Source: a virus (Duplodnaviria; Caudoviricetes). Taken from it: a stretch of DNA of 64,000 nt. A program made the translations under genes and the position numbers. The stretch is from the IMG/VR virus record IMGVR_UViG_3300047321_000298, positions 160,001 through 224,000 of that record; one strand, written 5' to 3'. Every line of letters starts with the position of its first letter. The first letter of the stretch is position 1. This document shows, piece after piece, positions 14,526 through 46,143 of this stretch. Below the pieces are notes generated by a model. That model saw nothing but the letters and a program-made list of their open reading frames with translations, did no database searches and was not told the DNA's origin.

Positions 14526-16079
14526 ATGAAACTTAATGCAGCGTCACGCTTGACCGCTAACTGGTGGGACAATCTCGGACCGGATGGTCAGGCCCAATAC
14601 CTCAAGGACCACCCGAACTCGGAGAAAGCCAAGGAAGCCCGCCAGCAACAGCAGAAGACTGGCGAGAAGCCAAAGGCTGAAGAGAAGCCGAAAAAGGAAG
14701 AGCCACAGAAGCAAACTCCGAAGGCTGACGACGAGCCGGACGCAGAAGGGAAAAAACAGAAGCCGGAACCGGAGCAGAAAAAGCCGGAACCAAAGGCTGA
14801 CGATTCCGAGCAGAAGCAACCGGAACCAAAGGCTGACGAACCGGCCGCACAGGAGCCGAAAGCCGCACCCGGGATCGATGAGAAGCCGAAGCAAAAACCG
14901 CTCGCTCCTGGCCGCCCGTTGGCAGACTTTGCGAAAGAACGCGACGATCCGACCTTCACTGCGGAGAAGCTGTTCGCAAAGCTGAAGCCTGAGGATGCTC
15001 AGGAAATCAAGGACAAGACGCAACAGGCGATGCGCCTGCCGCCGTCCGACAAGGAATACATCAAGAACGGCGAGTACACTCCGGAACGCAAACGGCTGCA
15101 CCAGGAGATTACCCGCAAGATTCTCACACCGGACCGCATCAAGGCCGCGACGCCAAAGCCTGGCGAGAACCCGACGTTCATCGTGCTCGGTGGGCGTGGG
15201 GGTTCTGGCAAATCTTCGTTCACGCATAACGAGGAAACCGGCGCACCTGCGACAGTCAGCGAGTTCGATTCGTCCAAGTTCCTGACGCTGGACGCGGATG
15301 CGATCAAGCAGATGCTGTATCCGCCGTATGAAGGCTGGAACGCGAACCAGGTGCACGAAGAATCGTCCGAACTGTTCGATCAGATCATGAAGACGGCGCA
15401 AGGCATGGGTCTTAACATCATCTCGGATGCGACGCTCAAGTCAGACAAGATGGGCTCGCAGTTGGAAGAACTCGCAGCGAAGGGTTACGACATCGAGGGG
15501 CACTACATGTACCTGCCGCGTCAGAAAGCTGCTGAGCGCGCTTGCGGACGCTACCTGAAGGATGGCCCGGGTAACCGGGGCCGTCTGGTGCCGCCTGAGG
15601 TTATCTTGGGCAACGTCAACAACGAAGCGAACTTCGACAAGCTGAAGAAATATTTCAAGCGCTGGTCGGCCTACAACAACGATGTGGCTCGTGGCGAAAA
15701 TCCGCAGTTGATTGACCATTCCGATTTGAATCCGAAGAAGACTGATGCACGAGTCGTCAAATCGTCATATAATCGAAGCGTCGTAAAGGCACACCAGCTT
15801 CTTTTTGGTGGCCTGCGTAGGCTTTTGCTGGCAGATAACGAGGGGGCCGATATGGGCACTCAGGAACAAGAACAACCGCAATATACCGCCGACTCGTGGG
15901 AAAACGATCCGTATCTCACGAACAATCCTGAACGTGAAGCGCGGGTGAAGCGTGACACGTACCCGATGATGAAGGCGCTTGGTATCCGGACCTCGCAAGT
16001 CAAGGACCCGCAGACGAAAGCTGAGTACATCGCCTATCTCAAGGGCGAACAGGGTGCTAAGGACGAACAGAGCGAGTGA
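14526..16079 (+). CDS. zeta-toxin-family P-loop kinase with shared leader peptide, WW..HP motif and K/E/P-rich linker
   Basis: Leader MKLNAASRLTA; FIVLGGRGGSGKS Walker A, DADAIK, VHEESS, ISDATL, GRLVP. Confidence 0.85.
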   Translation: MKLNAASRLTANWWDNLGPDGQAQYLKDHPNSEKAKEARQQQQKTGEKPKAEEKPKKEEPQKQTPKADDEPDAEGKKQKPEPEQKKPEPKADDSEQKQPEPKADEPAAQEPKAAPGIDEKPKQKPLAPGRPLADFAKERDDPTFTAEKLFAKLKPEDAQEIKDKTQQAMRLPPSDKEYIKNGEYTPERKRLHQEITRKILTPDRIKAATPKPGENPTFIVLGGRGGSGKSSFTHNEETGAPATVSEFDSSKFLTLDADAIKQMLYPPYEGWNANQVHEESSELFDQIMKTAQGMGLNIISDATLKSDKMGSQLEELAAKGYDIEGHYMYLPRQKAAERACGRYLKDGPGNRGRLVPPEVILGNVNNEANFDKLKKYFKRWSAYNNDVARGENPQLIDHSDLNPKKTDARVVKSSYNRSVVKAHQLLFGGLRRLLLADNEGADMGTQEQEQPQYTADSWENDPYLTNNPEREARVKRDTYPMMKALGIRTSQVKDPQTKAEYIAYLKGEQGAKDEQSE

Positions 16080-16082
16080 TCT

Positions 16083-16586
16083 ATGACCTTCATCCAGCGT
16101 CTACTGGCAACAGCAGACGGGGAAGAGGATCAGGGGCCACTGGCTGACACTGAATATTGGGCAAAACGCGGCGCAGGTTGTGTGCTAATGGCACAGTCTA
16201 CGCTGCGTTTTCTTTTGCCCATGCGCTCCGCACAGGTTTCCGAACCCCACACCTACGGCACGTGGGGTGGCGGAATCGACGGATCAGAAAGTCCTGGGGC
16301 ATCCGTTCGTCGCGAGCTACGCGAAGAAGCCGGTTATGTCGGTGTTTCCTCCCTTTACCCGTTGCTCGTCTATCGCGATCTTGATCAAGGTCGCGTCTAT
16401 CACAATTTCCTCGCCGTCGTCCCTGAAGAGTTCGAGCCCGTTCTGAACTGGGAGACGGAACACGCAATATGGGTGCCATTTGACGAATTCCATCAACCTC
16501 TGCATCCGGGGTTGGAGTCCTTGCTGAAAGACCCGTATTCAATACGAACGATCAATTCGCATATGGAGCGGGCTTATCATGTATAG
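16083..16586 (+). CDS. Nudix hydrolase
   Basis: GGGIDGSESPGASVRRELREEAG Nudix box; N-terminus MTFIQRLLATA. Confidence 0.9.
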   Translation: MTFIQRLLATADGEEDQGPLADTEYWAKRGAGCVLMAQSTLRFLLPMRSAQVSEPHTYGTWGGGIDGSESPGASVRRELREEAGYVGVSSLYPLLVYRDLDQGRVYHNFLAVVPEEFEPVLNWETEHAIWVPFDEFHQPLHPGLESLLKDPYSIRTINSHMERAYHV

Positions 16587-16784
16587 GATACATTGGCAGT
16601 GGGTTGTAATTAATGGCGCAGTATCAACGGCCGATATGTTCGTCACGGTATTTTCGCTCATTGTCATCTCACAATGCATTCCGTGTTTTGCGATTCAGCT
16701 TGTTTCGTCGCTGTTTATCCGACAGCCCTACGAACACTGCCTGAGAGCTAAACGCCGGTCCCGTTATATCCAAAGGGTGGCGAC

Positions 16785-17291
16785 ATGAATGCAGCGCACA
16801 GACTTTTAGCTACCGCCATTCATCCGGAAGTTCAGCATATGGTGGATACAACGCTCAAGATGCTAAAGCGGAAGTTTCCGAAAGTCCCCAAAAAGCTGAA
16901 GGTTGTTTTTGAAAGGCGGGTGGGCGCTACGTTCGATCCGTGGGACTGGGAACTCAAGATGTCTGACTACGGGCTCGATCAGCCGCTGCACGTGGTAGAT
17001 AAAGAGGAAGATCAGGCTCAAGGCCCCGGAACCCTCCAGTACGGTCTGGAGGGCACCCTAATCCACGAATTCGGGCACGCGGTCAACGCAACGATCATCA
17101 AGCTCCACAGGCAGGACGATGACGCTCTGGGCGCATGGCAGCAGACGAAGCATGAATTGGAGCAAAAGCTAGGACACCCATCGGCCTACGCGAAGAAAAA
17201 CAATAGCGAGTGGTTTGCTGAACAGTTCCTGTACGAGATGAAGGGCCACGGGCATGCGCTGCTCGATGCAATCCAAGAGTGGAGCAAATAA
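16785..17291 (+). CDS. HExxH zincin-like metallopeptidase with leader peptide
   Basis: MNAAHRLLATA; LIHEFGHAV and SAYAKKNNSEWFAE. Confidence 0.75.
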   Translation: MNAAHRLLATAIHPEVQHMVDTTLKMLKRKFPKVPKKLKVVFERRVGATFDPWDWELKMSDYGLDQPLHVVDKEEDQAQGPGTLQYGLEGTLIHEFGHAVNATIIKLHRQDDDALGAWQQTKHELEQKLGHPSAYAKKNNSEWFAEQFLYEMKGHGHALLDAIQEWSK

Positions 17292-17878
17292 TGAAGATAC
17301 ACGCAGCGCAACGATTGCTCGGCTCCGCGTGGCAGGGGCACTTCAAGCTGGAGCTACCGGACGCCGTACGCGAAGAAATCCACGACATCATGAACAAGCT
17401 GTCCGCAGATTTCCCCACGCTGGCACATATCAACATCGAAGCTGGCGATCCGGAGTGGATGGAGAATATTCTCGCAACGAAGAGTCTGACGGCGCTGTAC
17501 CTGAACGCTCATTATTTTCAGGACCCCGAAAAGCTGCGTGTGCATTTCGAGAACTGGAAGGGTTTGCAGGTTGAACCAACGCTGACGGGCACGATTATCC
17601 ACGAGTGCGGACACATTCTGGCCAATCAGGTGCTGCAAAAAGCGGGCGCGCGTAAATTCAATAACGTACTAAAGAAACACCTGAGTGATCTTAACGGCAT
17701 CTGGAATTATGAGAGTCCCTCGTCCTACGGCCAGGAGAACACCTCAGAATTTCTCGCTGAAGCGTTCGTTGCACATTATCTCGGCAAACACGCGTGGGAC
17801 CCGATAGGTGAGTTCGGAACAATGTCTATGGCAACCAGCAATGCAGTCTGGACAGCCATGCGCAAACTTTTGAAATAG
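17291..17878 (+). CDS. HExxH zincin-like metallopeptidase with leader peptide
   Basis: TAATG coupling; MKIHAAQRLLGSA; IIHECGHIL and SSYGQENTSEFLAEAF. Confidence 0.75.
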   Translation: MKIHAAQRLLGSAWQGHFKLELPDAVREEIHDIMNKLSADFPTLAHINIEAGDPEWMENILATKSLTALYLNAHYFQDPEKLRVHFENWKGLQVEPTLTGTIIHECGHILANQVLQKAGARKFNNVLKKHLSDLNGIWNYESPSSYGQENTSEFLAEAFVAHYLGKHAWDPIGEFGTMSMATSNAVWTAMRKLLK

Positions 17879-17887
17879 GAGATTAGC

Positions 17888-18283
17888 TTGACTACAGGAA
17901 TCAATGCGGCGCATCGGCTAATCGCAGCCTCTGCTGAAGATGCGATACGCGAAGCAATCAACAACGCACCCAACCAGCACATCGGCAAGCCGTTCCCTGT
18001 CGTCACTCACTTCAACGGCGTGACGGTCCCCTTTATGGCCTACATCACGCGTATCGCTAACTCTGCGGAGCAGATGCGCGGGTCTTTCACCAAGGTCACT
18101 CTGACAACGGTGAAATGGGGCTTGCTGATCAAGGGTCATCCAAAGTGCTGGATTGCGGCGCACTACATACTGGATCAAAAGAACCGGCTGAAGGAAAGCG
18201 GCTTACCGTCGCGTATCGAAGACCACGAAGCCGAAAAATTCTTCCACGACTGCGGTGTTCCGGTTCCTCCCCATCTCCAGTAA
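17888..18283 (+). CDS. hypothetical protein with leader peptide
   Basis: TTG start, RBS aggag; MTTGINAAHRLIAAS. Confidence 0.7.
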   Translation: MTTGINAAHRLIAASAEDAIREAINNAPNQHIGKPFPVVTHFNGVTVPFMAYITRIANSAEQMRGSFTKVTLTTVKWGLLIKGHPKCWIAAHYILDQKNRLKESGLPSRIEDHEAEKFFHDCGVPVPPHLQ

Positions 18284-18318
18284 ATAAAAAGTAGGTACAC
18301 AAAAACTGGGGTGGCAGA

Positions 18319-18765: not shown

Positions 18766-18768
18766 TCA

Positions 18769-19068: not shown

Positions 19069-19071
19069 ACG

Positions 19072-19096
19072 AAGCCCGCCATAGAGCGGGCTTTTT
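19072..19096 (+). terminator. intrinsic terminator
   Basis: aagcccgc-N6-gcgggctt-ttt. Confidence 0.75.
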
Positions 19097-19141
19097 CATT
19101 TCAATTTCATAGCATCGACTACAAATTAGTGAGGTGCCACA

Positions 19142-20398: not shown

Positions 20399-21202
20399 AT
20401 GGAAGCAGCAAAAAGACTGGCAGCATCGGAAAAATCATGTTCGATGGAACTACCGCGTTTCCGTTACATGGACGACGTGACGCGGTATCTGTCGAACATG
20501 CGGTCAGATATCGAAGACTCTGAGAATCTAATCAGGGTTACACAGAAGGCGCTGGCGTCGCTCACCAAAGCAAAGATCGAAGCACAAAAGATCGACCCGG
20601 AAATCAAGAAGAAAGTCGTGCCGTCCGTGTCAAAGCTCCAGTCACAGTATGGCCTGATTGAAGACCTCTACGAGAAGCACCGGACACTGGAATCCGTCGA
20701 GTCGCAGATCACGCTGCAGTTTCCCGTGCGCAAGGGCGAGGTCTACGAGCGGACAACTGCGACGCTGCGTGAACTGAAGAAGAAAGTGGAAACACAGTTG
20801 CGGACGGTTCTAGATTTCCTTCGCGACATCTCGAACAAGCACGAGCCCAAGTCTTTCGCGAAATATCGACAGGCGGTGATTCAGGAAATTCAGGAGCGGC
20901 TGGAATTCCGCGACTCCGAGCAGTATCTGTATGTGTCCACTGCCGACTCTGACCTGATTTTCACCTCGTACTTCCTGTTGAATGACGTGCTGACAGAGGA
21001 CAGGCGGAAGGTTCCGAACCTGTACGTATCTATTCAGTGGGTGGTTGGTACAGGCGTCTTCACGCATCTGTCCAACGAGTTCGAACTCCCCGAAAGTCTG
21101 ACACACGAGCCGGGTACCGAGTGCAAGACGATGGCGGAGACGGTCACCTCGCTTTCGAACCTACTCAGCGCAGAAGGCTTCTTCAATAAACAAGGTAAAT
21201 GA
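20399..21202 (+). CDS. hypothetical late protein with shortened leader
   Basis: MEAAKRLAASE. Confidence 0.65.
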   Translation: MEAAKRLAASEKSCSMELPRFRYMDDVTRYLSNMRSDIEDSENLIRVTQKALASLTKAKIEAQKIDPEIKKKVVPSVSKLQSQYGLIEDLYEKHRTLESVESQITLQFPVRKGEVYERTTATLRELKKKVETQLRTVLDFLRDISNKHEPKSFAKYRQAVIQEIQERLEFRDSEQYLYVSTADSDLIFTSYFLLNDVLTEDRRKVPNLYVSIQWVVGTGVFTHLSNEFELPESLTHEPGTECKTMAETVTSLSNLLSAEGFFNKQGK

Positions 21203-21203
21203 T

Positions 21204-21566
21204 ATGTACGCGAAATTAGATAGGCGTCAGGGGCAATTCCACAGCGTGGAGCTAAAGCTTGTGTCGAAACAGGGGAAGACGCTGAAGAACTGGTGCAAGC
21301 CTGAAGAAATGAACACGTATCTCAGAGAGAACGGCTTCAGGAATGGCCCTGGCGGCACGCTCGAAACAGACAAAGAGTTGCAGAAGAAAGGAACGTTCGC
21401 AGACGCCCAGCACCTCGCTACAGACGGAGACTTGCCGATTGGCAACTTGGACATGAAGACAGGAGGCGGCGTGAATAACTACGCGATGCCCTCGATCCCG
21501 GTTCAAGGCGCGGCAGAGCGGCTGCTCGCAACCAAAGAATGGCCTTTCCCTGAGAAGGATGAATGA
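21204..21566 (+). CDS. hypothetical late protein
   Basis: C-terminal VQGAAERLLATKEW. Confidence 0.65.
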   Translation: MYAKLDRRQGQFHSVELKLVSKQGKTLKNWCKPEEMNTYLRENGFRNGPGGTLETDKELQKKGTFADAQHLATDGDLPIGNLDMKTGGGVNNYAMPSIPVQGAAERLLATKEWPFPEKDE

Positions 21567-21568
21567 TT

Positions 21569-23113
21569 ATGGCGGCACCCTTTCTGTTTTTCAAAGAAGT
21601 CCTACCCGACCTGTCGTATCAGGTAGACATCTCGCAGTACATCAACCAAGCCGAAACGATTACGTCAATCGTAGCCTCTGCGCCGCTTCCCACATCGTCC
21701 GCACCCCTGGCCGTCACGATCACCTCAGGACTCAGTCCCGTGATCCGGATGACAGCATCTGGCGGCAATGAAGCTGTGAGCTACGGCTACACACTGACGG
21801 TCACGACGACAGCACAGGTGCTTCTGTTCACGGTCGCAATCACCGTACAGGACCCGTCCTTTGTTCCGTACATCACTTCGAACCCAAGCGCCTTCCAAGA
21901 CCTCGTTGACGAGATTCAAGCGGGCGACGCGGCAATCGCTTCATCCGTTTTCGCGTTTCCTGCCGGTATCGATCCTTCAGGCGGTTTCGTCACGTGGGAG
22001 CTTCTGGCGAGTGACGGCACAGTGTATTCAGCCGGTAACGCGTTCGAGTACAAGATCATCCAGAATGGTCTGTCGAACACGGTGATTTCGCGCTGCGTTA
22101 TCTCGGTTCCGTCCACGGTCCCGCCGTCGCTGGACGGCCAGAAATACCAACTTCGATACACGCTGGCTCTGCCTCAGGACTCAGGAACCCCACAAGACCC
22201 GACGACCGGCGCGCTGTCACAGAACACGTTCTTCCAGTTCGAAAATATCCGCGTCGTATCGCTTACGAACGTTCCGCTCGGTACTCAGCCATCTGTGGAG
22301 CTTCAGGGCGTCAACGCAACTGTTTCGCTGGTCACAGATAAGCCCTACGACAACGTGACGGTTGAAATATGGGCGGGTACTTCGCAGGTTGCTCCCGCGT
22401 CGGTGATTCAGGAATTCGAGCGCACGGCGACTGGTTTCTGCTTTTCTGGCGTGATCAACACGTCACAGTTCCAAGTATCGCTGGTTCCGTATCAGGTGAT
22501 CTGGAAATACTGGGCGTCGAATAATCCCGGTGTCGTGTACCAAGAATCGGCCGATCTGTTTGTGATCAACCCTTCGATCATGAACGCGATCAACAACGTC
22601 AAGGACAAGATCAACAAGGCGCGCACAACGCTCTACGGTCATCCTGATCTGTTGTATCCGAACGCCGTGATCATGACTTGGCTGCGCCGTGGGGCAGATG
22701 CGTTTAACGCTGCATACGGTCAGTTCACTAGCTTCACCATGACCGACGCGCTGGGCCCGATCCGCGAATTCTGGCTGCTCGAAGCCGAACTGTCAGCCAT
22801 CCGAGCGCAATACCTGGCTGAGGGTGAGAAAGCATTCGACTTCCAAGGCGGTGCAATCTCACTCGAAGTGGATCGTACGCAGTATCTCGATACTGCTGCG
22901 CAGGCGATAGAAAACGTACTCGATCAACAACTGAAGCTGATCAAGCAAAACCTGATCATCAAAGGCAACACGTCCGGAACAGGCGCGTCTGGAGCGAACG
23001 CTGGTGCCCTTCAACCGGGTGCTATCGGGGCCGTTGGAATCACCATCACTCCCGCAAGCATGTTCGGACGTTTCTCCCCAGCGTATGGACTAAGTGGGCC
23101 GCGCAATTTGTAA
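21569..23113 (+). CDS. virion structural protein (beta-rich N-terminus, helical adaptor-like C-terminus)
   Basis: S/T/V-rich composition; position in the structural region. Confidence 0.55.
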   Translation: MAAPFLFFKEVLPDLSYQVDISQYINQAETITSIVASAPLPTSSAPLAVTITSGLSPVIRMTASGGNEAVSYGYTLTVTTTAQVLLFTVAITVQDPSFVPYITSNPSAFQDLVDEIQAGDAAIASSVFAFPAGIDPSGGFVTWELLASDGTVYSAGNAFEYKIIQNGLSNTVISRCVISVPSTVPPSLDGQKYQLRYTLALPQDSGTPQDPTTGALSQNTFFQFENIRVVSLTNVPLGTQPSVELQGVNATVSLVTDKPYDNVTVEIWAGTSQVAPASVIQEFERTATGFCFSGVINTSQFQVSLVPYQVIWKYWASNNPGVVYQESADLFVINPSIMNAINNVKDKINKARTTLYGHPDLLYPNAVIMTWLRRGADAFNAAYGQFTSFTMTDALGPIREFWLLEAELSAIRAQYLAEGEKAFDFQGGAISLEVDRTQYLDTAAQAIENVLDQQLKLIKQNLIIKGNTSGTGASGANAGALQPGAIGAVGITITPASMFGRFSPAYGLSGPRNL

Positions 23114-23515: not shown

Positions 23516-24010
23516 ATGACGATTAACTACGTGCAGTTGAAAGAAGCTATGGCCGCAGCAGGACTTCCTGTTTCGCAGGGTGCCGCGTGGCTGGGCTCGG
23601 ATGATGGTTTGTACATTCAGCAGTACGTTCCGGGGGTCGCCTACGCAGCAGGTGTACGCCCTGACCGTTCGAACGCACATTACGGTCTGGCGTACGCGGG
23701 GGCTATGCCTGCTGCCCTCTCTGCTGCTGTTACCGGCGCTCAGTACAGCGCAACGCTCGCAGGTTCTCCGCTGACCGGTGTGCACTCATCAGCCCCGGTT
23801 ACCTGGACGCTGACTGAAGCACACAAACCGGCCGGTGCAACCGTGTCGTATCTGTGGGCGCTGGGTGATGGCACGAACCAGACCACCTCAGTCCCGTCCG
23901 TCACACGCACTTACACGGCTGCTGGCTCGTTCACCGCGACGTGCACTCCGACCATCAACGGAATTCCGCAGACCCTCGTGACGGCTGCGGCACCGGCAGT
24001 TCTGACGTAA
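23516..24010 (+). CDS. PKD-domain virion decoration protein
   Basis: SYLWALGDGT...VTRTYTAAGSFTATCT PKD signature. Confidence 0.8.
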   Translation: MTINYVQLKEAMAAAGLPVSQGAAWLGSDDGLYIQQYVPGVAYAAGVRPDRSNAHYGLAYAGAMPAALSAAVTGAQYSATLAGSPLTGVHSSAPVTWTLTEAHKPAGATVSYLWALGDGTNQTTSVPSVTRTYTAAGSFTATCTPTINGIPQTLVTAAAPAVLT

Positions 24011-37327: not shown

Positions 37328-37627
37328 ATGGCTACTTTAGTCATAAATGTAAGCCGTGTACCGCAACAGGTTGGGCTGATCCTGTCGAATGGGGAGAAGT
37401 CGTATTCGCGAGTCATGGCCCGCAGTCGTGCACAGCTTCAAGACGGTGCGACAGTCGATCCGCACTGGCTCGCAATGAATCCGGGTGTGGTGAAAATCAC
37501 AGAGGTTCAACAGCCTGCGGTCGCGCAAGCAAAGACCAACGCATCAAAACCAGCAGTGTCTGTAGCTACACAGACTGCAACGACAAATACGGCAGAGACC
37601 GTCGCTAGCGATACGGGAGTCGAATAA
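37328..37627 (+). CDS. small tail-associated hypothetical protein
   Basis: RBS aggagg; coupled to the sheath start. Confidence 0.6.
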   Translation: MATLVINVSRVPQQVGLILSNGEKSYSRVMARSRAQLQDGATVDPHWLAMNPGVVKITEVQQPAVAQAKTNASKPAVSVATQTATTNTAETVASDTGVE

Positions 37628-39564
37628 TGACGATCTCCGCTAATCAGTCATCAAAAGTTATCACGCAAGAAATCAACCTGTCGCAAGTCGTTACTTCGGC
37701 TTCAACGTCAGTCGTTGCACAAGTCGTGGTGTCGAAGCAGGGTTCCACGTCCCCGATGCTGTTCACGAACGCTCAGGACTATCTGGCGCAGTACGGAAAC
37801 CCCAACGCTGCAATCTCGTTTGACGTGTATTGCGCGCTGGACTACTTCAAGCAGGGCAATCAGTTGTGGGCTTTGCGCGTAGCGGGTGCCGGGGCCCTGT
37901 ACTCGTCAGTGCTGATGTGGACGGACGGCAACCTGACGTACCTGACGCCGATTACTGCTGGCGTCACCGATCCGACTCAACCAGATTGGGCAGCGTTGCT
38001 CCCTGCGGGCACCGGCCACGAAGCTATCGCCTTGTTCTATCCCGCGATGGGTCCTGGCTCATATGCGGACAACTACGCAATATCGATTGCGTCATCGAAC
38101 ATTGCGACGCCTTCAGGTCTGGCGCTGGCTTCGAGCAATACAGGCGGAGTACTTCCCTCAGCAACATACGAGTATCAAGTATCGGCTGTGGGTGCGAACG
38201 GTGAGACTCTCGTTTCGCAGCCTGTGCAGATCGTGATTGCGGGTCCGCAAGTAACGAACAGTGTGACGTTGTCGTGGAATAACGTACCGCTCGCTCAGGG
38301 CTACAACATCTACGGCCGCACTGCTTCGGGGGTCGGCTACATCACGCAGGTTGGACAAGGAACGCTGACGTTCACGGACACAGGCGCGATCACTGTCAAC
38401 ACGAACAAGCAGCCCCTCGTGTCGCCTGCCGATCTGGAAGCACCGAATCCAGTGTTCACGGTTTCAGTGTTCAACACGGCACAAAGCTCCACATACCCAG
38501 TTGAGCAGTTCGATTGCTCGCTCGAAGACAACACAGATTCGACCGGTCTGGAAACTGAGCTTGAACAACGTATCAATCCGTTCTCGCAATTCATCCAGGT
38601 CACGTCGAACGTTCCGGCGCTCACATCAGCACCGGCTGTTGATTCGGTGGTTACAACGAACCTGGCTGGCGGCAACTCAGGTGCGGCTCCCACGTCAACC
38701 GACGTTGCTGGCGCATGGGACACGTTCTCGAACAAGCAACTGTATGCAGTGAACATCCTGCTGAACTCTGGGCATGCATCGCCAGATGTGCAGTTGGCGA
38801 TGGACTCACTGGCTCAGCGTCGTGGTGACTGCGTGGCGCTCCTTGACGTGCCCTCAGCATCACAGAAGTTCCAGCAGGCAATCAACTATCGCAATCTCCA
38901 GTTGAACCTGAACTCAACGTATAGCGCGCTGTTCTCGCCGGACGTTCTGGAAGCTGACACGATCAACGGCAAGCAGCAATACGTGCCGTTCTCAGGTCAG
39001 GCCGCTGCACGCTGCGCATATACCGATTCAGTTGCTAACCCCAGCTTCTCGATTGCTGGTCTGAATCGCGGGCTGCTGGATGTTCTGGGTACGCGCTATA
39101 CGTACGATGCGGGCCAAATGGATGCGTTGTTCCAGGCTCAGGTGAACTACACGCAAACGTTCGTTGGTCAGGGTACCGCACTCTGGGAACAACAGACGAT
39201 GGCCGCAGAAATGTCGGCGCTGTCGTGGGTATCAGTTCGCCGGATCGTCAACGTGATGAAGGTCGCGCTCTACAAGTTCCTGTTGTATTCGCTGCAGGAG
39301 CCGAACGACGACTTCCTTGGCCGTCAGATCGTTAGCTCATGTTCGGACTATCTCCAAACCATTCAGAACGCACGCGGCATCTCAGCGTTCTCGGTGGTGT
39401 CCGACACGAGCAATAACACGGCTCAGGACTTCAACACGGGCGTGCGTAACGTCACCGTGATCATCATCCCGACGATCCCGACGCACATCATCAACCTGCA
39501 AGTTGTGATTTCGCAGCAGGGCGTTTCGTTCACTGAAGCGCTTTCGCAGGTGAGCCCTGGTTAG
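37627..39564 (+). CDS. contractile tail sheath protein
   Basis: 645 aa; VITQEINLS N-terminus, RGDCVALLD, SIAGLNRG, WEQQTM...SVRRIVN, LQEPND sheath motifs. Confidence 0.92.
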   Translation: MTISANQSSKVITQEINLSQVVTSASTSVVAQVVVSKQGSTSPMLFTNAQDYLAQYGNPNAAISFDVYCALDYFKQGNQLWALRVAGAGALYSSVLMWTDGNLTYLTPITAGVTDPTQPDWAALLPAGTGHEAIALFYPAMGPGSYADNYAISIASSNIATPSGLALASSNTGGVLPSATYEYQVSAVGANGETLVSQPVQIVIAGPQVTNSVTLSWNNVPLAQGYNIYGRTASGVGYITQVGQGTLTFTDTGAITVNTNKQPLVSPADLEAPNPVFTVSVFNTAQSSTYPVEQFDCSLEDNTDSTGLETELEQRINPFSQFIQVTSNVPALTSAPAVDSVVTTNLAGGNSGAAPTSTDVAGAWDTFSNKQLYAVNILLNSGHASPDVQLAMDSLAQRRGDCVALLDVPSASQKFQQAINYRNLQLNLNSTYSALFSPDVLEADTINGKQQYVPFSGQAAARCAYTDSVANPSFSIAGLNRGLLDVLGTRYTYDAGQMDALFQAQVNYTQTFVGQGTALWEQQTMAAEMSALSWVSVRRIVNVMKVALYKFLLYSLQEPNDDFLGRQIVSSCSDYLQTIQNARGISAFSVVSDTSNNTAQDFNTGVRNVTVIIIPTIPTHIINLQVVISQQGVSFTEALSQVSPG

Positions 39565-39575
39565 TAGACCGAAGT

Positions 39576-39602
39576 AGGGTGCCAGAAAATCGGCACCCTT
39601 TT
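39576..39602 (+). terminator. intrinsic terminator
   Basis: agggtgcc-N8-ggcaccct-ttt. Confidence 0.65.
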
Positions 39603-39615
39603 CAGAGGAAAAACT

Positions 39616-40065
39616 ATGAAGCTTAAAGCATCAACCAGATTGCTCGCGGATTCTCCCGTCATCGCGCCGTCTGATTCGTTCAGAGACGAGAACAAAGAGC
39701 AGTTGAAGGATCGCCAGTCTGAGAGCCGGAAGACCGAAAAGACGGATAGCGGCAGCCCTTCAACCGAAGCCTCATCTACTGCGGTTTCTCAGGGTTCGCA
39801 GGCACTGCCTCAAACCGAAAGCACCTATGCGCGGCTCATCCAATCCGGAGCAGAGGACGACCCTCTCACGATGGATATGGAGGACGCGTGTACGGCTGGC
39901 GACACATCGGACGGTTACGTACCGAACTCAGAAACGGGTTTCGAGCTAGAGGGTCCGGACGTGGATGAGAACTACCTGAACGTAAGGGGCTGCTCGACAG
40001 AGGACGAACTGCTGGCTGACGCGGACCCGACCCTGTGGAACAACGCCGAACAGCCGATGGGGTGA
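39616..40065 (+). CDS. acidic protein with leader peptide
   Basis: MKLKASTRLLADS; RBS gagg. Confidence 0.7.
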   Translation: MKLKASTRLLADSPVIAPSDSFRDENKEQLKDRQSESRKTEKTDSGSPSTEASSTAVSQGSQALPQTESTYARLIQSGAEDDPLTMDMEDACTAGDTSDGYVPNSETGFELEGPDVDENYLNVRGCSTEDELLADADPTLWNNAEQPMG

Positions 40066-40068
40066 GGG

Positions 40069-40365
40069 ATGAAACTCAACGCGATGTACCGGCTACTCGC
40101 ACTTTCTGCGCTGGATCATGCGCGAAACGTGGAGAAGCTATTCGACACCCTGAGGTCACGCCATATGAGCGTTGTCCTCAACAAGACCGATTACACCATC
40201 GGATTCAGATCGGACACCGAACAAGTGCTCCGGGCGCTAGGGCTCATGGGCTTTCGCAAAAACGGCACCAGCCACAACGGAATGATGCTCTCAGACGGGC
40301 ATCAGGAAATCCGTTTGTTTGAACCACGCGAAGGCTGGCCCCCAATCGCACAGCTTCTACATTAA
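40069..40365 (+). CDS. small protein with leader peptide
   Basis: MKLNAMYRLLALS. Confidence 0.7.
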   Translation: MKLNAMYRLLALSALDHARNVEKLFDTLRSRHMSVVLNKTDYTIGFRSDTEQVLRALGLMGFRKNGTSHNGMMLSDGHQEIRLFEPREGWPPIAQLLH

Positions 40366-40377
40366 AGGAATTCAGTT

Positions 40378-40884
40378 ATGTCACGGACAAGTTTGTTTGA
40401 TGTCGAGAGCGTAGCCGATCCGGCGCAGTCGTGGAACTTCGATATGTTCCTGCCAGCGATTCCCGGTTCGTCAGATACGCGAGCTTTGACGTGGAAGTGC
40501 ATGACCTCAGCGCTGCCAGGTTTCGGCTTCGACAACGTTGAGGTTCCACTTCACGGAATCGTCCTGAACTATGCGGGCCGCAAGACGTTCACGCATACGT
40601 TCAACTCAACATTCATGGAAGCATCAGATTGGTCAACGCGTTCGCAGTTCTACGCGTGGTCAGAATCAATGCGTTCGTGGATTAACAACAGCGGAACATT
40701 CGCATCAGCCTACAAGGTCAACGCTCAACTCGTTGTGTACAACGATCTGCCACAGGTCTCGCGCACGATCAACGTGATGGGTATGTGGCCTGCTGAAGTT
40801 GCAGACGTTGAGCTGGACGGCGGCGCTTCGAACCTCATTTCACTCAATATCACTTGGCGCTTCGACTATCTCCAAGATACCTGA
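40378..40884 (+). CDS. tail tube protein
   Basis: 168 aa; DPAQSWNFD, NYAGRKTF, Y-K..YNDLP..TINVMGMWP T4-gp19-like pattern. Confidence 0.85.
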   Translation: MSRTSLFDVESVADPAQSWNFDMFLPAIPGSSDTRALTWKCMTSALPGFGFDNVEVPLHGIVLNYAGRKTFTHTFNSTFMEASDWSTRSQFYAWSESMRSWINNSGTFASAYKVNAQLVVYNDLPQVSRTINVMGMWPAEVADVELDGGASNLISLNITWRFDYLQDT

Positions 40885-40904
40885 TGCGCGACTCCGGAGT
40901 CTAT

Positions 40905-42035
40905 ATGTTGAAGATCAATGCTGCATCTAGACTTCTGGTGACTGCTGAAGGGGAGTGGTTTTATTCACTCCCCGACGAGATGCAAAAGCAGTACATAGAA
41001 GAACATCCGGAATCCAAGTACGCCAAGGACTACAAGCCCAAGGGCGATAACCCGTCGATTCCGGGTCCCCAGACTGCACCAAACGACCCGCAATCGCCTC
41101 AAAATCAGCCCAAAGTGCAAACCCCAATGGGAGCACCGGGCAGGCTCCAGAGACCGCCAGCGCAGTTGGTTAAGCCCAGGCCGCAGTTGCCAAAGAAGAC
41201 TGAAGAAGCGCTGAAACATGTGCCGAAACCTGTTGGAAAGGCACTTAAAAACGGTGGCATGAAGCCCAAGTCGAAAGAGCGGATGGAGATTGCAGAGAAG
41301 CTGAAGGCGAAGACTCCACGTCTTGCGCGCGGCATGCTTAAAGACACGATGGGTGCTGCAAAAGGTTTGGCATCAACCTACAACATCGTCGTCAAGGGCA
41401 AGCCTGAACAGGGCGACTTCAAGAAGGTCGCGTCGATGTTCGGGACGATTCTTGGATCATCGGTGATGGCCGCTGCAATTGGGACCACGGGTCCAGTTGG
41501 TTTCCTCGCGTTCATGGCAGTCAAGCATATGGCTGCACCTGCTCTGTACCGAATGGCACAGAAAGCGTTCCATCCGCCTCCCGAACCTGACTCTTATGGC
41601 TACTGGGCAGATGAAGACACGTGGGTCGATATGCCTAAGGCGGAATGGGAAAAGCTGACCGACAAGGAAGCTGACCGCCGATTCAAGGAAGGCCAGAAAA
41701 AGAAGGCGCTAGAGAAACACGGTCACGGCTATTGGGACAAAGGTCAGTGGCATGCGCAGCCGCGCGCAGAGTGGGAACAGGATTTCAACAAGCGCGGGCC
41801 TGGGAAGCGTTCAGACATCGGCAAGCAGGGTGCGTCAGTGGTCACTGCCACGGACGAGGAAAAGCAGATGACCCAGCTTCTGGAGACGCTGTTCGATTTT
41901 GTGGAGAACGGAGATATCCCGAAGGAAGCTATCGAGCGTGCAGTCTACGAAATGGCTGATGCACAGATCGCTAGGGACCGTGAGCACGAGAAAGAGCAGC
42001 TTCAGAGGCAAGAGCACGAGAATTCTCGCGATTAA
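40905..42035 (+). CDS. protein with leader peptide, WF..HP motif and central hydrophobic/Gly-rich segment
   Basis: RBS ggag before ATG 40905; MLKINAASRLLVTAEGEWFYSLPDEMQKQYIEEHPES. Confidence 0.75.
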   Translation: MLKINAASRLLVTAEGEWFYSLPDEMQKQYIEEHPESKYAKDYKPKGDNPSIPGPQTAPNDPQSPQNQPKVQTPMGAPGRLQRPPAQLVKPRPQLPKKTEEALKHVPKPVGKALKNGGMKPKSKERMEIAEKLKAKTPRLARGMLKDTMGAAKGLASTYNIVVKGKPEQGDFKKVASMFGTILGSSVMAAAIGTTGPVGFLAFMAVKHMAAPALYRMAQKAFHPPPEPDSYGYWADEDTWVDMPKAEWEKLTDKEADRRFKEGQKKKALEKHGHGYWDKGQWHAQPRAEWEQDFNKRGPGKRSDIGKQGASVVTATDEEKQMTQLLETLFDFVENGDIPKEAIERAVYEMADAQIARDREHEKEQLQRQEHENSRD

Positions 42036-42123
42036 GCGTGCAACACCCGCAATTTCATTAGAGCAGTAACCTGCGCATCGACGCTCACAAGACTTCAATT
42101 TTCCTTTCGCAATAAGGTACAAA

Positions 42124-42870
42124 ATGGATACGAATACTCTGTCAATCACCGACTTCGAAATGAAGACTCCGACCATCGCGAAGGTCGTCATTTCGTACAC
42201 GGGTGGTTTCAACAAGGAGAAGGTTCGCGCCTCTCTTCTGAAGATGCTGGACAACCGCGCTGCACCGGTTGAAGATTCCTTCCGCCAGGTGCGTGCGGGC
42301 GTCGCTGTCGGCTTCCTGCGGGCTAACCGCGAAGTGCGTGTTGTGGACCCGAAGGAACTTCGCGCATCGTATCGCGTCATGGGTTCATCGAACATCATGA
42401 TGAGCGAAGTCGATAACTCGCTGTGGGAAGTGAAGCAAGGCAAGGGCGGTACGTTCCTCGCTCGCCACGGTCAGGAAGACCTGTCGGAACTGGTCGAAAG
42501 CTCAACGCAGCGCCGCACCGATGTCCCGGGCATTCGCCACCTGCAACTGGCGAAGGCCGTATCGGGCGAGTTCGTGGCATTCACCTCGAAGTCTGGCGAC
42601 ATGGACTACGGTTTCGTTGTTGCTTCGAACTCGGAAAAGGTTAAGGTCGTTTCGACCACGACTCAGATGCCCGCCGTCGCTTCGTACGATATGGTGTCGT
42701 TCATCGGCCGCGCTCCGATTCCGAAGTCGTTCGCTCAGGACATGGTGAAGGCTGGCATCAGCCGCGAAGACAAGTCGCAGGCCATCGAGTACTGGAAAAA
42801 GCTGTACTCATACAACCCGGCCTACCTGCAAATGGTGATCGATCAGGTGAACGAGGGCACAGTCGCCTAA
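42124..42870 (+). CDS. probable highly expressed late/virion protein of unknown function
   Basis: Biased codons like the MCP; AATTTCAT upstream; terminator downstream. Confidence 0.6.
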   Translation: MDTNTLSITDFEMKTPTIAKVVISYTGGFNKEKVRASLLKMLDNRAAPVEDSFRQVRAGVAVGFLRANREVRVVDPKELRASYRVMGSSNIMMSEVDNSLWEVKQGKGGTFLARHGQEDLSELVESSTQRRTDVPGIRHLQLAKAVSGEFVAFTSKSGDMDYGFVVASNSEKVKVVSTTTQMPAVASYDMVSFIGRAPIPKSFAQDMVKAGISREDKSQAIEYWKKLYSYNPAYLQMVIDQVNEGTVA

Positions 42871-42882
42871 CTGAGTTCAGAG

Positions 42883-42909
42883 AAAGCCCGCGTTTATCGT
42901 GGGCTTTTT
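42883..42909 (+). terminator. intrinsic terminator
   Basis: aaagccc...gggcttttt. Confidence 0.65.
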
Positions 42910-42929
42910 CTTTATCTAGGAAGAAAGAT

Positions 42930-43259
42930 ATGGAACTGAATGCAGCCACGCGACTGCTCGCTGATTGGTGGTCCGACTTAAGTCCGGAAGAGCAGGAGAA
43001 GTACATCAAGGACCATCCGCATTCTGACAAGGCAATGGAGAAGCGGAAGCACGCCTACCACAACCCAGAAGTGGAAATCTCCGATTCCCGCTACTCGAAC
43101 GGTAGTAAGATCGTACGCGTAAAATCTGAGACTGGTTATAAGACTAAAGGCCACGACGTTGCAGAAGAACTCAAGGGCCGCTGGTCGAACCGCGAGAAGG
43201 GCTACATCATGAGTCCGACCAAAGCCCTTAAGTTCCAGAAGATGATGGCTCAACAATAA
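42930..43259 (+). CDS. leader-array gene 1 (with WW..HP motif)
   Basis: MELNAATRLLADWWSDLSPEEQEKYIKDHPHS. Confidence 0.8.
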   Translation: MELNAATRLLADWWSDLSPEEQEKYIKDHPHSDKAMEKRKHAYHNPEVEISDSRYSNGSKIVRVKSETGYKTKGHDVAEELKGRWSNREKGYIMSPTKALKFQKMMAQQ

Positions 43260-43266
43260 GGCGATC

Positions 43267-43737
43267 ATGGAACTCAATGCAGGCTCCCGGCTGATCGAAG
43301 CCGCAACAGAGAAGCGACTTATTGGCGAATACGTGACGAAGAACGGGGAACCGGCAATCACGATCTATCAGGAAATCAATGATAAAGGTCGTGTTCAGTA
43401 TCGCCCCGACATCATGCACGACAAGTTCAGTTGCCCGCCGTTTCATGACCGTTCCGACTATCGCGAAGTCTATACGAAGGTTACTGAGGAACTGAAGCGC
43501 AAGCGCGGATGGAAGGCAATCAAGCCGTTGCCCGAACACGAACCGTCAACCCATGTGGAACCGACACACTACGAATTCCACGTGGAGTTTCTGGACGAGA
43601 ATGGGCGTATGGGCAAGCTCGATCACGCGGTGAAGGCGCGCAATCGCTTTGACGCGTTTGCTGAGTTGCTCCAGGGATTGAAACGAAGCGGCGGGATGGA
43701 AGTCGTTCACCGAATCACATGCACCGCTAGTAAATAG
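43267..43737 (+). CDS. leader-array gene 2
   Basis: MELNAGSRLIEAA. Confidence 0.8.
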   Translation: MELNAGSRLIEAATEKRLIGEYVTKNGEPAITIYQEINDKGRVQYRPDIMHDKFSCPPFHDRSDYREVYTKVTEELKRKRGWKAIKPLPEHEPSTHVEPTHYEFHVEFLDENGRMGKLDHAVKARNRFDAFAELLQGLKRSGGMEVVHRITCTASK

Positions 43738-43761
43738 ACACCGAATCGACTAGGGAATAAC

Positions 43762-44046
43762 ATGGAACTTAATGCGAGCACGCGACTGTACGCGGCAAAC
43801 CTCACAGAGAAGGCAGCGGAATTCCGCGCGCTGTTGAAACAGAAGGGTCTCAAGGTGCGCACCCGCGTCGCACCGGGTGGCGGTCAGGTGCAGGTGATCG
43901 CGCCGTCCTACGCAGAGCCGTTCACCGACGAGCAGAAGCTGACCATCAACCAGTTGGCCGTAGACCTCGGATATGTTGGTGTTAGGGGCACTCCTATCAA
44001 CGTGCACGGTGGCGATTCCCATCAACTCAACTTCTATCCGGGCTGA
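43762..44046 (+). CDS. leader-array gene 3
   Basis: MELNASTRLYAAN. Confidence 0.8.
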   Translation: MELNASTRLYAANLTEKAAEFRALLKQKGLKVRTRVAPGGGQVQVIAPSYAEPFTDEQKLTINQLAVDLGYVGVRGTPINVHGGDSHQLNFYPG

Positions 44047-44054
44047 GTAACCAC

Positions 44055-44516
44055 ATGTCACCACTCGAAAACGTAAAGCGCCTGTATCTCGATTATCTCA
44101 ATGCAGGGTTCAAGAAAGACGTGATCGCACGAAAGCTGAAAAGTCAGTTTCCGGGTGCGAAGTTCACGTTCAAGGGTGCAACGCTGTACGTTGCATTTGG
44201 CCTCAATCCAGAGCAGAAGGTGTTAGGTATGGAACTCAACGCAGCGCAGCGCTTGCAAGTCACAGCCTCCGACTATCACAAGCTGAAAGAACTCGCGAAA
44301 AAGTTCGAGCAGCAATTGAAGAAGGAGGGCGCTCCGGGCGTCGAAGTGACGTTCATCAGCGATGATGAAATCAACATCTTCAGCGAAGACAAGCACGCAT
44401 TTGACAAGGCGAAGCAAGTCCTCAAGAAGGTGCCGGGTCTAACCTTCAGCAAGGAAGACGTGGACAACGATCCCGATTTCGACGGCCCGCAATATCACGC
44501 CTGGTACAAGTTCTGA
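44055..44516 (+). CDS. leader-array gene 4; leader at in-frame internal ATG 44229
   Basis: Internal MELNAAQRLQVTA preceded by ttaggt. Confidence 0.7.
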   Translation: MSPLENVKRLYLDYLNAGFKKDVIARKLKSQFPGAKFTFKGATLYVAFGLNPEQKVLGMELNAAQRLQVTASDYHKLKELAKKFEQQLKKEGAPGVEVTFISDDEINIFSEDKHAFDKAKQVLKKVPGLTFSKEDVDNDPDFDGPQYHAWYKF

Positions 44517-44581
44517 TCACTTGCACAATACGTCAATAGGAGTAAGATGCTTCTGTTGACGTATTCATTGCGGAGAAGAAC

Positions 44582-44893
44582 ATGGAACTCAACGCAGCGC
44601 AACGGCTGACAGCAACTTCGGATCAGGACAACGTCTCGAAGGCTCTGATTGATCACAACTTCAAGCTGCCTTTGTTTGAGGTTGCTGTTGACGGGGCACA
44701 TGGCACTGTCTACGCGAAGCAGGTCGCCTCCCAAATCCGCACGGGCAACGTGAACATTTTTCTCAAGATGCAGGGCGAGAAGGATGTCCGCATTGGTGCT
44801 TACACAGACCACCCGCGCAACACGGTTTCCGATCTGAAAAGCTACGTGAAGGAAGAACTGCTCGAAGAAGGTACGATCACCCGATCATTGTAA
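44582..44893 (+). CDS. leader-array gene 5
   Basis: MELNAAQRLTATS; RBS ggag. Confidence 0.8.
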   Translation: MELNAAQRLTATSDQDNVSKALIDHNFKLPLFEVAVDGAHGTVYAKQVASQIRTGNVNIFLKMQGEKDVRIGAYTDHPRNTVSDLKSYVKEELLEEGTITRSL

Positions 44894-44902
44894 GAGGAAC
44901 TC

Positions 44903-45160
44903 ATGGAACTGAACGCAGCTACGCGGCTGATTGCGTCGGACATCGAAGAACGTCTAAAGGAAAAGATGTCGCGGTATGGCCACGCGACTTTTACTGGCAG
45001 GCGCGACTTCGATGCCATCGAGAAGCTGGAGCGCGAGGGAAAGCTCCAGGACTATGCCGTGTCTCGCGATGTATACAACGCTAACGGTCCCGAATTTAAG
45101 TCGCAGTGGAAGTCCCCGCGCTCAAAGACCGCCTACGAAATCACCGTGAGTCCGAAATGA
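44903..45160 (+). CDS. leader-array gene 6
   Basis: MELNAATRLIASD; RBS gagg. Confidence 0.8.
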   Translation: MELNAATRLIASDIEERLKEKMSRYGHATFTGRRDFDAIEKLEREGKLQDYAVSRDVYNANGPEFKSQWKSPRSKTAYEITVSPK

Positions 45161-45351
45161 TAGAACTGAACGCGGCGTACAGACTGCTCGCACTGAGCTA
45201 TGACGGCAACATCGGAATGATGGAGATGGTCAAGTTCTATAAGGTGGCGACACCGGAGCAGAAGAGCCTGATGCAATCCTTCCTCAGTAGCAAACAGTTT
45301 GCCAAGGGCTGGGAACTGCTCCAGGACGTGACCGGTGTCAAACTCAAATAA
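45157..45351 (+). CDS. leader-array gene 7
   Basis: ATGA coupling; MIELNAAYRLLALS. Confidence 0.8.
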   Translation: MIELNAAYRLLALSYDGNIGMMEMVKFYKVATPEQKSLMQSFLSSKQFAKGWELLQDVTGVKLK

Positions 45352-45372
45352 CCTCAAACACTGTACCAATCT

Positions 45373-45648
45373 ATGACGACACTTAACGCATCATCTCGGC
45401 TGACTGCGGGTGCCCCTCACGACCGGCACCTGGAAAAGATCGTCAACGCGATCAACCACAGCGGCATCAAGGCCGCACACATCAATTCGGAGGGTCAGGA
45501 AGTCGTGGTGAGTACCATGAAACCCTTCAACGTTCACATGCTTGGGAAGTTCGCTGAGCAAATGCACGTCGATCCGCAGCACATCAGCATTGAACTCGGT
45601 CACGGTGTCATCGAACTCCGTATTCCTGAGTTCGTAATCGGCAAGTAG
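45373..45648 (+). CDS. leader-array gene 8
   Basis: MTTLNASSRLTAG. Confidence 0.8.
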   Translation: MTTLNASSRLTAGAPHDRHLEKIVNAINHSGIKAAHINSEGQEVVVSTMKPFNVHMLGKFAEQMHVDPQHISIELGHGVIELRIPEFVIGK

Positions 45649-45656
45649 GTAGAATA

Positions 45657-45908
45657 ATGACGGGACTCAACGCAGCCACCCGCCTCGTGGCATCCGAGCC
45701 ACGACTGACGCGTCAGGAACTGTTTAAACGGGCCCGCGATAAGGGGTACAAGGTGACGGATAGGGGAACGCGCGTTTTCGTTACCCTGAACCGGTACACG
45801 TCGCTTGTGTTCTACGAAGACGGTTCGATCTTCTTCGCAGACATGGACCTATCGGCAGCAAAGAAAATCCCGCTGAAAGAAGCCTTTCGGATTTTGAAAC
45901 TCCTGTGA
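45657..45908 (+). CDS. leader-array gene 9
   Basis: MTGLNAATRLVASE. Confidence 0.8.
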   Translation: MTGLNAATRLVASEPRLTRQELFKRARDKGYKVTDRGTRVFVTLNRYTSLVFYEDGSIFFADMDLSAAKKIPLKEAFRILKLL

Positions 45909-45915
45909 GAAACCC

Positions 45916-46143
45916 ATGACTGAACTCAACGCAGCCACCCGCCTCGTGGCGACGGAAACCGAAAAGCCAGGTCATGGCGAAGTCGGCTCGCACGAGTATG
46001 AGAACTACGGCAAATACTTTCGTAGAGGTGATCTGGTGAAAGATAACTACGGCAAGTTACATACAGTGCGGGAGCATCGCGGCCCACAAGTATTTTTTCA
46101 GGACGGGGGCTACGCCCACCCGTCGAAACTGCATCTAGCCTGA
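45916..46143 (+). CDS. leader-array gene 10
   Basis: MTELNAATRLVATE. Confidence 0.8.
   Translation: MTELNAATRLVATETEKPGHGEVGSHEYENYGKYFRRGDLVKDNYGKLHTVREHRGPQVFFQDGGYAHPSKLHLA

Follow-up and report, generated by a model that had tools for sequence, protein, structure and literature searches.

The stretch analyzed here (the window; 64 kb, bases 160001–224000 of the 245,517-bp virus record IMGVR_UViG_3300047321_000298) carries, between its positions 14526 and 46143, 19 open reading frames (ORFs) on the + strand whose products start with a common peptide, M-x(0-4)-[LI]-N-A-A-x-R-L-x-A, in which the arginine and the leucine are invariant; we refer to this peptide as the leader or tag (Table 1). 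Most of the 19 genes have a purine-rich ribosome-binding site 5–10 bases upstream. Sequence comparison places the phage among the jumbo phages of the phiRSL1/BcepSauron clade. Its portal protein shares 61% identity with the portal proteins of BcepSauron and BcepSaruman, which infect Burkholderia, and 53% with that of the Ralstonia phage phiRSL1, and the gene order in the window agrees with that of all three. An enzyme block including a NUDIX hydrolase and a dCMP deaminase is followed by the portal gene and the gene for an SNF2-family DarB-like protein, and then by those for the prohead protease, an acidic 526-residue (aa) protein, a virion protein, the major capsid protein, the tail sheath, and the tail tube.

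Table 1. Leader-bearing genes and head and tail genes of the window (window coordinates; pI, isoelectric point)
Position	Strand	Feature	Basis or match
14526–16079	+	Leader MKLNAASRLTA, W-W..H-P module, Zeta-toxin-like P-loop kinase, 517 aa	Pfam Zeta_toxin 4e-20; Walker A GRGGSGKS intact
16083–16586	+	Degenerate leader MTFIQRLLATA, NUDIX hydrolase, 167 aa	Pfam NUDIX 1.5e-13; NUDIX box intact
16785–17291	+	Leader MNAAHRLLATA, zincin (lethal-factor-like) metallopeptidase, 168 aa	Pfam ATLF 4.3e-7, above curated cut-off; HEFGH
17291–17878	+	Leader MKIHAAQRLLGSA, second zincin metallopeptidase, 195 aa	Pfam ATLF 6e-6; PHROG zinc-finger protease; HECGH
17888–18283	+	Leader MTTGINAAHRLIAAS (TTG start), 131-aa protein	No Pfam or PHROG match
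20399–21202	+	Short leader MEAAKRLAAS, conserved 267-aa protein, two genes upstream of portal
21204–21566	+	120-aa protein just upstream of portal; GAAERLLAT near C-terminus (nucleotides 21504–21533)
21563–23113	+	Portal protein	61% identity to BcepSauron protein annotated "head-tail connector"
24358–24795	+	145-aa acidic protein ending LKAHSRLMGG
25907–30475	+	SNF2-family helicase, 1522 aa, DarB-like, in head module	Pfam SNF2-rel_dom 5e-13
31471–32391	+	Prohead maturation protease, candidate for leader removal	PHROG head maturation protease 2e-86
32448–34028	+	Acidic 526-aa protein, pI 4.4, scaffold candidate, between protease and capsid genes
34187–34882		Virion protein, between acidic 526-aa protein and major capsid gene
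34964–36049	+	Major capsid protein	PHROG major head protein 9e-99
37627–39564		Tail sheath gene
39616–40065	+	Leader MKLKASTRLLA, very acidic protein, 149 aa, pI 4.1, between sheath and tube
40069–40365	+	Leader MKLNAMYRLLA, 98-aa protein
40378–40884		Tail tube gene
40905–42035	+	Leader MLKINAASRLLVTA, W-F..H-P module, Pro/Gln-rich linker, hydrophobic segment, charged C-terminal part, 376 aa
42930–46143	+	Array of ten small leader genes
42930–43259	+	Array member 1
43267–43737	+	Array member 2
43762–44046	+	Array member 3
44229–44516	+	Array member 4
44582–44893	+	Array member 5
44903–45160	+	Array member 6
45157–45351	+	Array member 7
45373–45648	+	Array member 8
45657–45908	+	Array member 9
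45916–46143	+	Array member 10

A first-pass annotation of this DNA had listed 19 such N-termini, all of which were recovered, with small corrections to four entries. The gene at 17888 bears the leader and uses a TTG start codon behind a good AGGAG; that at 16083 has only the second half of the motif (IQRLLATA), the full leader being found on its NUDIX orthologues in relatives; and the copy placed near 45160 is present, with its true start at ATG 45157 (MIELNAAYRL). The copy at 44229 lies in frame within an ORF spanning 44055–44516 and is hence possibly internal: 58 in-frame, stop-free codons run from ATG 44055 up to this leader, which leaves two alternatives, a protein of two modules that carries the tag internally and an erroneous start call.

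When a position-specific score built from the 19 copies was applied to the six-frame translation of the 245.5-kb genome, all 19 scored at least 21 and every other position at most 19.1, with the sole exception (22.8) of the C-terminus of a 94-aa ORF at genome positions 15965–16249, outside the window. De novo clustering of the first 14 residues of 373 ORFs across the genome likewise returned the leader as the only large family, the other N-terminal clusters having at most four members and no evident common motif. The 94-aa ORF has a GTG start behind AAGGAGG, an N-terminus M-R-V-D-A-A-N-R-L-A-A (MRVDAANRLAAD), and a second, stronger tag copy at its C-terminus (ELNAAARLAVATPNI-stop); on its predicted termini it brings the number of tagged genes to 20, and its product, with a tag at either end, could serve as an adaptor. 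The large ORFs adjoining it (genome 10.5–15.9 kb) are presumed to be tail genes. The reported absence of the motif from early gene clusters holds, with this gene as an addition.

Within the 17 full copies, the invariant arginine is encoded by CGC, AGA, CGA, and CGG and the invariant leucine by TTG, CTT, CTA, CTG, and CTC, and the third codon positions of the asparagine and alanines vary too. The synonymous variation claimed at first pass is confirmed, with four arginine and five leucine codons, and because the invariant residues and others use so many synonymous codons, the constraint must act on the peptide. These codon data are hard to reconcile with an element acting at the DNA or RNA level, such as an enhancer of translation initiation or a site for late regulation, of which the peptide would be a by-product. 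In favor of such an element, the leader always opens the coding region, in late-type genes on one strand, but third positions are free, arginine is drawn from both the CGN and AGA families, C-terminal and internal copies (described below) preserve the peptide, and the upstream regions have only a Shine-Dalgarno-like purine run in common; we regard this explanation as extremely unlikely. A promoter and terminator scan of the small-gene array gave nothing above the shuffled background. Equally hard to reconcile with the codon data is a leader that has no targeting role and is either a remnant of repeated duplication or a recombination cassette for gene swaps into late operons. Such an origin could account for ten tagged genes standing head to tail in one array, for the identity of several genes in the first 11–12 bases after the ATG, and for the turnover of bodies between relatives. 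It accounts poorly for invariant residues that survive extensive synonymous codon change next to freely varying positions, for a core that persists in relatives with capsid proteins only 75–87% identical and, in shifted form, in phiRSL1, and for a tag on enzymes of quite different origin, and we judge it very improbable.

Four of the tagged bodies are identifiable, namely the Zeta-type kinase, the NUDIX hydrolase, and the two zincin peptidases, and their catalytic motifs (Walker A, NUDIX box, and two HExxH) are intact; the ATLF match of the 17291 product (26.5 bits) falls just below the curated cut-off of 27.4. Each tagged enzyme is encoded by a separate gene of 131–517 aa with one recognizable domain. 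The remaining bodies, including those of the ten array genes, gave no family match save two weak PHROG matches of unknown function, and most of them (60–150 aa) were without adhesin-like or fiber-like domains in PHROG and family searches. Comparison by blastp after removal of the leader upholds the statement that the bodies are unrelated for most of them and contradicts it in two instances. The 16785 and 17291 products are paralogous metallopeptidases, and the 14526, 40905, and 42930 products have in common a W-[WF]-x2-L-x4-Q-x2-Y-x3-H-P-x-S module right behind the leader (window 14560–14640, 40945–41020, and 42965–43040); apart from this module in 42930, the array bodies show no mutual similarity. 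BcepSauron gp075 contains the same module twice, one behind each of two tag copies, which suggests a fused pair or an unrecognized gene boundary. Judged by sequence, the hydrophobic segment of the 40905 protein is possibly membrane-spanning; the very acidic 39616 protein is probably disordered.

With the capsid protein as query, IMG/VR yielded 25 loci at 75–98% identity, to which further pieces of three long contigs were added. The window and these relatives together provide 65 distinct N-terminal leaders scoring at least 20. All of them have A(−3), R(0), and L(+1), whereas A(−2) occurs in 87% and A(+3) in 80%, and the downstream positions are unconserved. Leaders are concentrated near the head and tail genes of three other genomes as well, so that the restriction to structural modules applies to four genomes, this phage included. 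About eight leader copies are present in BcepSauron. A leader profile search gave no match in phiRSL1, where inspection by eye and by regular expression identified at least nine ORFs with a variant having one extra residue, I-x-A-A-V-x-R-L-x-A-T; phiRSL1 escaped the profile search because it uses this shifted A-A-V-x-R-L-x-A-T form, and the BcepSauron-type and phiRSL1-type leaders therefore define a minimal common core, A-x-x-R-L-x-A.

Leader-bearing orthologues exist for the NUDIX hydrolase (in BcepSauron, phiRSL1, and three IMG/VR genomes), for the 39616 protein (in six relatives), for the 40905 protein (at seven loci), and for the 20399 and 40069 proteins. No homologue was found in the relatives for the Zeta kinase, the two peptidases, the 17888 protein, or the whole array; the relatives have their own tagged small-gene arrays at the equivalent position, such that the bodies turn over and the tag stays. 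Tag-free orthologues are also found (BcepSauron gp094, phiRSL1 ORF116, and phiRSL1 ORF141, the last corresponding to the 39616 protein). An alignment of the 20399 family shows A3, A4, R6, and L7 to be invariant, followed by a linker of 0–37 aa and then by the conserved body. An AlphaFold2 (AF2) model of the 20399 protein places the leader in a detached helix (residues 2–9) with a predicted local distance difference test (pLDDT) score below 50, compared with 81.6 overall for the body. A fold search with this body gave no significant match in the PDB, and a protein atlas search with the 20399 and 39616 proteins gave no usable match. The variable linker, the detached helix of the model, and the tag-free orthologues together indicate that the tag behaves as a separable module. 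One further leader (MKVQIHAAQRLL) opens a 478-aa protein of an uncultured relative (G001; L035:14500-14600, − strand, near 224596), likely a homospermidine synthase since its N-terminal stretch (ILVLGF) resembles the start of the phiRSL1 enzyme; the phiRSL1 homospermidine synthase itself has no leader.

The distribution and the bodies of the tagged genes also bear on whether the peptide might be an intracellular signal (a chaperone site, a degron, or a localization signal) keeping potentially toxic late enzymes inactive, unstable, or confined. The tag is short and terminal, and several bodies, such as the Zeta kinase and the peptidases, are potentially harmful to the producing cell. Against such a role, the tag is confined to structural modules in four genomes, it is present on conserved proteins that hold their place among virion genes across the clade as well as on small proteins without a family or a recognizable catalytic domain, and no candidate receptor (a dedicated chaperone or adaptor) stands out beside the genes. 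We consider an intracellular signal quite unlikely.

Tag-like copies are not confined to N-termini. Besides the 120-aa and 145-aa proteins encoded on either side of the portal gene (Table 1), C-terminal copies are present in BcepSauron gp090, gp093, and gp098 and in two proteins of the relative G001, one of which, at least 150 aa long, has the C-terminus LKAALRLTESAG. BcepSauron gp093, which occupies the same place as the 120-aa protein, ends in ITAAQRLAAGA and has an internal LNAATRLYA, and gp090, the homologue of the 145-aa protein, has the C-terminus ISAARRLMGQ. Internal copies are likewise found in phiRSL1 ORF112, in two proteins of relatives, and in BcepSauron gp075. The scaffold candidate has an internal tag-like NASAKQRLAAA at residues 70–80; an internal tag as a general feature of this protein was rejected, as it was found in only three of 18 related sequences, several of which are incomplete at a contig end. 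The C-terminal and internal copies fit a docking motif better than an obligatorily N-terminal signal, and the strictly N-terminal propeptide envisaged at first pass gives way to something more like a position-independent docking tag.

Encapsulins provide a precedent for such a tag: a short terminal peptide, joined by a flexible linker and placed at either end of the cargo, loads unrelated enzymes into a shell of the HK97 fold. They differ from the present system in being non-viral and in having another motif, and binding of the present tag to a shell protein is a proposal only. A possible reading, which we hold only tentatively, carries this likeness further. The core A-x-x-R-L-x-A (7–9 residues) would be a clade-wide, position-independent cargo-loading peptide, more encapsulin-like than T4 propeptide-like, that docks on the scaffold or inner capsid, and the arsenal so loaded (Zeta kinase, NUDIX hydrolase, zincin peptidases, dozens of small proteins, and the likely homospermidine synthase of the relative) would be injected to disarm the host before expression of phage genes.

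Copies at C-termini and inside proteins would equally suit a retained docking plug, which would fix proteins outside the head lumen (in the neck, the tail lumen, the baseplate, or on the capsid exterior) and would be neither cut nor injected. A plug would be in keeping with the lack of a nearby A-x-E site in more than half of the leaders, with the tagged genes on both sides of the tube gene, and with the one located next to the presumed tail ORFs at genome 10.5–15.9 kb. However, the bodies that could be identified (Zeta kinase, NUDIX hydrolase, and zincin peptidases) are enzymes of a cytoplasmic type, dependent on ATP or nucleotide substrates, most of the others are 60–150 aa bodies without adhesin-like or fiber-like domains, and the majority of the tagged genes lie around those for the portal, the protease, and the capsid protein. 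A retained plug thus appears unlikely, if less so than an intracellular signal.

The head module encodes T4-like head machinery. The AF2 model of the maturation protease (31 homologues; pLDDT 76.5) has T4 gp21 as its best PDB match (5jbl: E-value 2.4e-3, probability 1.00, template modeling (TM) score 0.51 by target), followed by herpesvirus proteases; no Pfam match was obtained. The model thus predicts the T4 gp21/herpesvirus assemblin fold, with a fold match of moderate strength, in a family that has at least 228 members in metagenomes. The major capsid protein has two candidate maturation sites, AASE (residues 16–19) and AAAE (residues 67–70), conserved in 13 of the 13 relatives examined as V-A-A-[ST]-E (15–19) and A-[AS]-A-E (67–70), and its match to phage G gp27 (6wkk) starts only at residue 77, leaving an N-terminal extension before it. 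Both candidate sites agree with the (S/A/G)-x-E rule by which gp21-type proteases cut in phiKZ and SPN3US (PMC5694885). Residues 34–49 of the extension (window 35063–35110) contain E-I-N-A-S-x-K-R-D-L in all relatives and in Alexandravirus; its first half resembles the leader start (L-N-A-A/S), a resemblance that could be due to chance.

On balance, and by analogy, we consider it probable that the peptide is a virion- or head-loading tag that works like the capsid-targeting sequence (CTS) of T4, with a new sequence and a large, varied set of cargo. The T4-type targeting proposed at first pass agrees with the protease fold, the A-x-E sites of the capsid protein, the enzyme domains, the turnover of the array, and the variable linker; its cut site and its strict N-terminal position are the parts to be revised. 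The tag is probably a docking peptide that is cut off in only some proteins. We infer docking, packaging, cleavage, and injection of the tagged proteins as follows. During prohead assembly the short tag, a helix in the model of one family, would dock on a head component, which may be the portal region, the scaffold core, or the capsid protein on its inner side, and some 20 different cargo proteins would thereby be enclosed. The T4 gp21-type protease would then cut at [AGS]-x-E, so that the capsid protein matures and cargo is freed where a site follows the tag, cargo without a site retaining it. At infection the cargo would exit with the DNA and act early in the host; it would comprise the Zeta-type kinase, the NUDIX hydrolase, the two zincin peptidases, the protein with the hydrophobic segment, and the fast-changing small proteins. 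These steps differ in how firmly we hold them. Presence of the tagged proteins in virions seems fairly likely, whereas removal of the tag, for some proteins only, is a serious possibility that stops somewhat short of likely, and delivery of cargo into the host, suggested by the domain repertoire and by the precedents of T4 and P1, is about as finely poised.

In favor of cleavage, 22 of the 65 clade leaders have an [AGS]-x-E site no more than 12 residues behind R-L, compared with 41 of 324 control N-termini (13%; odds ratio 3.5, Fisher p 1.3e-4). Several observations weigh against head loading followed by cleavage. Part of the excess of sites stems from positions +3 and +4, which are rich in Ala. 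Only these 22 leaders in the clade, and eight of the 19 in the window, have such a site, so that tag removal cannot be general, and the cleavage rule itself is taken over from T4, phiKZ, and SPN3US. The cut "after RLxA" suggested at first pass is accordingly replaced by [AGS]-x-E a few residues downstream as the likeliest site; from the sequences, cleavage is plausible for this subset of tagged proteins and unsupported for the others. The tail tube gene has three tagged neighbors, two of them upstream, after the sheath gene, and one downstream; together with the tagged gene beside the presumed tail genes (genome 16 kb) they imply that some tagged proteins could be tail or neck parts. The tag-free orthologues of two conserved tagged proteins in phiRSL1 and BcepSauron indicate that the tag is dispensable for them there. 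Finally, no leader was seen in 40 kb around the head genes of Alexandravirus phages, whose protease belongs to the same family, and these phages were rejected as carriers. A complex prediction for the capsid protein and residues 1–36 of the 44903 protein, run without controls (score 0.00, partner pLDDT 32–34), counts neither way.

The T4 CTS is a 10–20-residue N-terminal peptide that takes the internal proteins IPI–III and Alt into the scaffold core and is removed by gp21 (Mullaney and Black 1996, summarized in PMC5694885). The present system resembles it in the short N-terminal peptide common to otherwise unrelated late proteins, in the gp21-fold prohead protease of the head module and the capsid N-terminal extension with Glu-ended candidate sites, and in a predicted cargo of small proteins and enzymes. 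In contrast, about 20 genes are tagged here rather than a handful as in T4, a cleavage site immediately following the tag is missing in many cases, C-terminal and internal tag-like copies exist, and a Zeta kinase, a NUDIX hydrolase, and zincin peptidases are among the predicted cargo. The likeness claimed is one of working alike and not of homology, and we know of no sequence relationship between the present tag and the T4 CTS. The internal-protein locus of T-even phages is likewise hypervariable, yet its leader is kept.

In phage P1, the SNF2-type anti-restriction protein DarB is packaged in the head, and an N-terminal stretch sends DarB and a reporter into the head (PMC9024508; PMC5512222). 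A giant DarB-like SNF2 protein is similarly encoded in the head module here. The P1 Dar proteins are without a consensus (PMC9024508), whereas one motif is found on about 20 proteins here, and the DarB-like protein has, instead of the leader, a different conserved N-terminus. This N-terminus, MKLRPSTNL (window 25907–25960), is kept in BcepSauron and phiRSL1 (L-R-P-T-T-N-L) and may be a separate packaging signal. Head and ejection proteins of phiKZ and SPN3US have propeptides of 80–160 residues that are cut at (S/A/G)-x-E, and the paralogues gp53 and gp54 have identical N-termini that were likened to a CTS (PMC5694885). These phages, too, are jumbo myophages with gp21-type proteases, and the A-x-E cut type is likely the same; unlike the present phage, they have long propeptides and no single short motif on many unrelated proteins, and the clades are only distantly related. 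The capsids of phiRSL1 appear to have internal densities under the vertices (PMC5646251); its GenBank records contain no annotation of virion proteins.

The predicted cargo also recalls the polyvalent proteins, which are injected by phages and conjugative elements and combine 2–15 effector domains in one polypeptide, with a domain set that includes lethal-factor-like zincins, Zeta kinases fused to MuF, NUDIX associations, and DarB-type SNF2 proteins (PMC5512222). The same effector domains are encoded here among late and packaging genes. However, polyvalent proteins are giant fusions anchored by MuF or portal modules, whereas the enzymes here are encoded by separate genes, each with its own short tag. 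A PHROG portal family includes a NUDIX-like stretch.

Literature searches for a motif of this kind found no description, only the T4, P1, and SPN3US precedents, and a preprint on phiMatilda, a Burkholderia relative of BcepSauron, does not mention it. The principle is known from T4; what is new lies in the sequence and the clade, in how many cargo proteins are tagged, and in copies that are independent of position. If the proposed loading role is correct, a simple sequence rule would list the injected proteins of a jumbo-phage clade infecting Burkholderia, Ralstonia, and Achromobacter and of many uncultured relatives. Most of the tagged proteins are without a known family and are good candidates for new anti-defense or host-takeover factors, and the Zeta kinase, NUDIX hydrolase, and zincin peptidases hint at what the phage may do to its host within seconds of infection. 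On the same condition, foreign proteins could be packaged by means of the nine-residue tag, a use to which the T4 and P1 signals have already been put.

Some further features of the window and its relatives were noted. Megablast of positions 42000–47000 against phage records gave zero matches, and a search for RNA sequencing runs covering 39000–47000 listed none. The genome has neither a 1059-aa ORF resembling the phiMatilda polymerase nor inverted terminal 25-mers, and so is not equated with phiMatilda. The proteins encoded at 23516–24010 and 30547–31041 have in common an N-terminal domain with M-x-x-N/D-x-x-x-I/L-K-x-A-x-A-A-G, and the former, which additionally contains a PKD domain, likely decorates the capsid or the neck. 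Judging by where the leader falls, several start codons annotated in phiRSL1 seem to be wrong (ORF111, 112, 126, and 133; L002:15602-16551, 24882-25163, and 32764-33264): ORF126 probably starts 45 bases earlier, and ORF111 and ORF133 probably start at internal Met codons.

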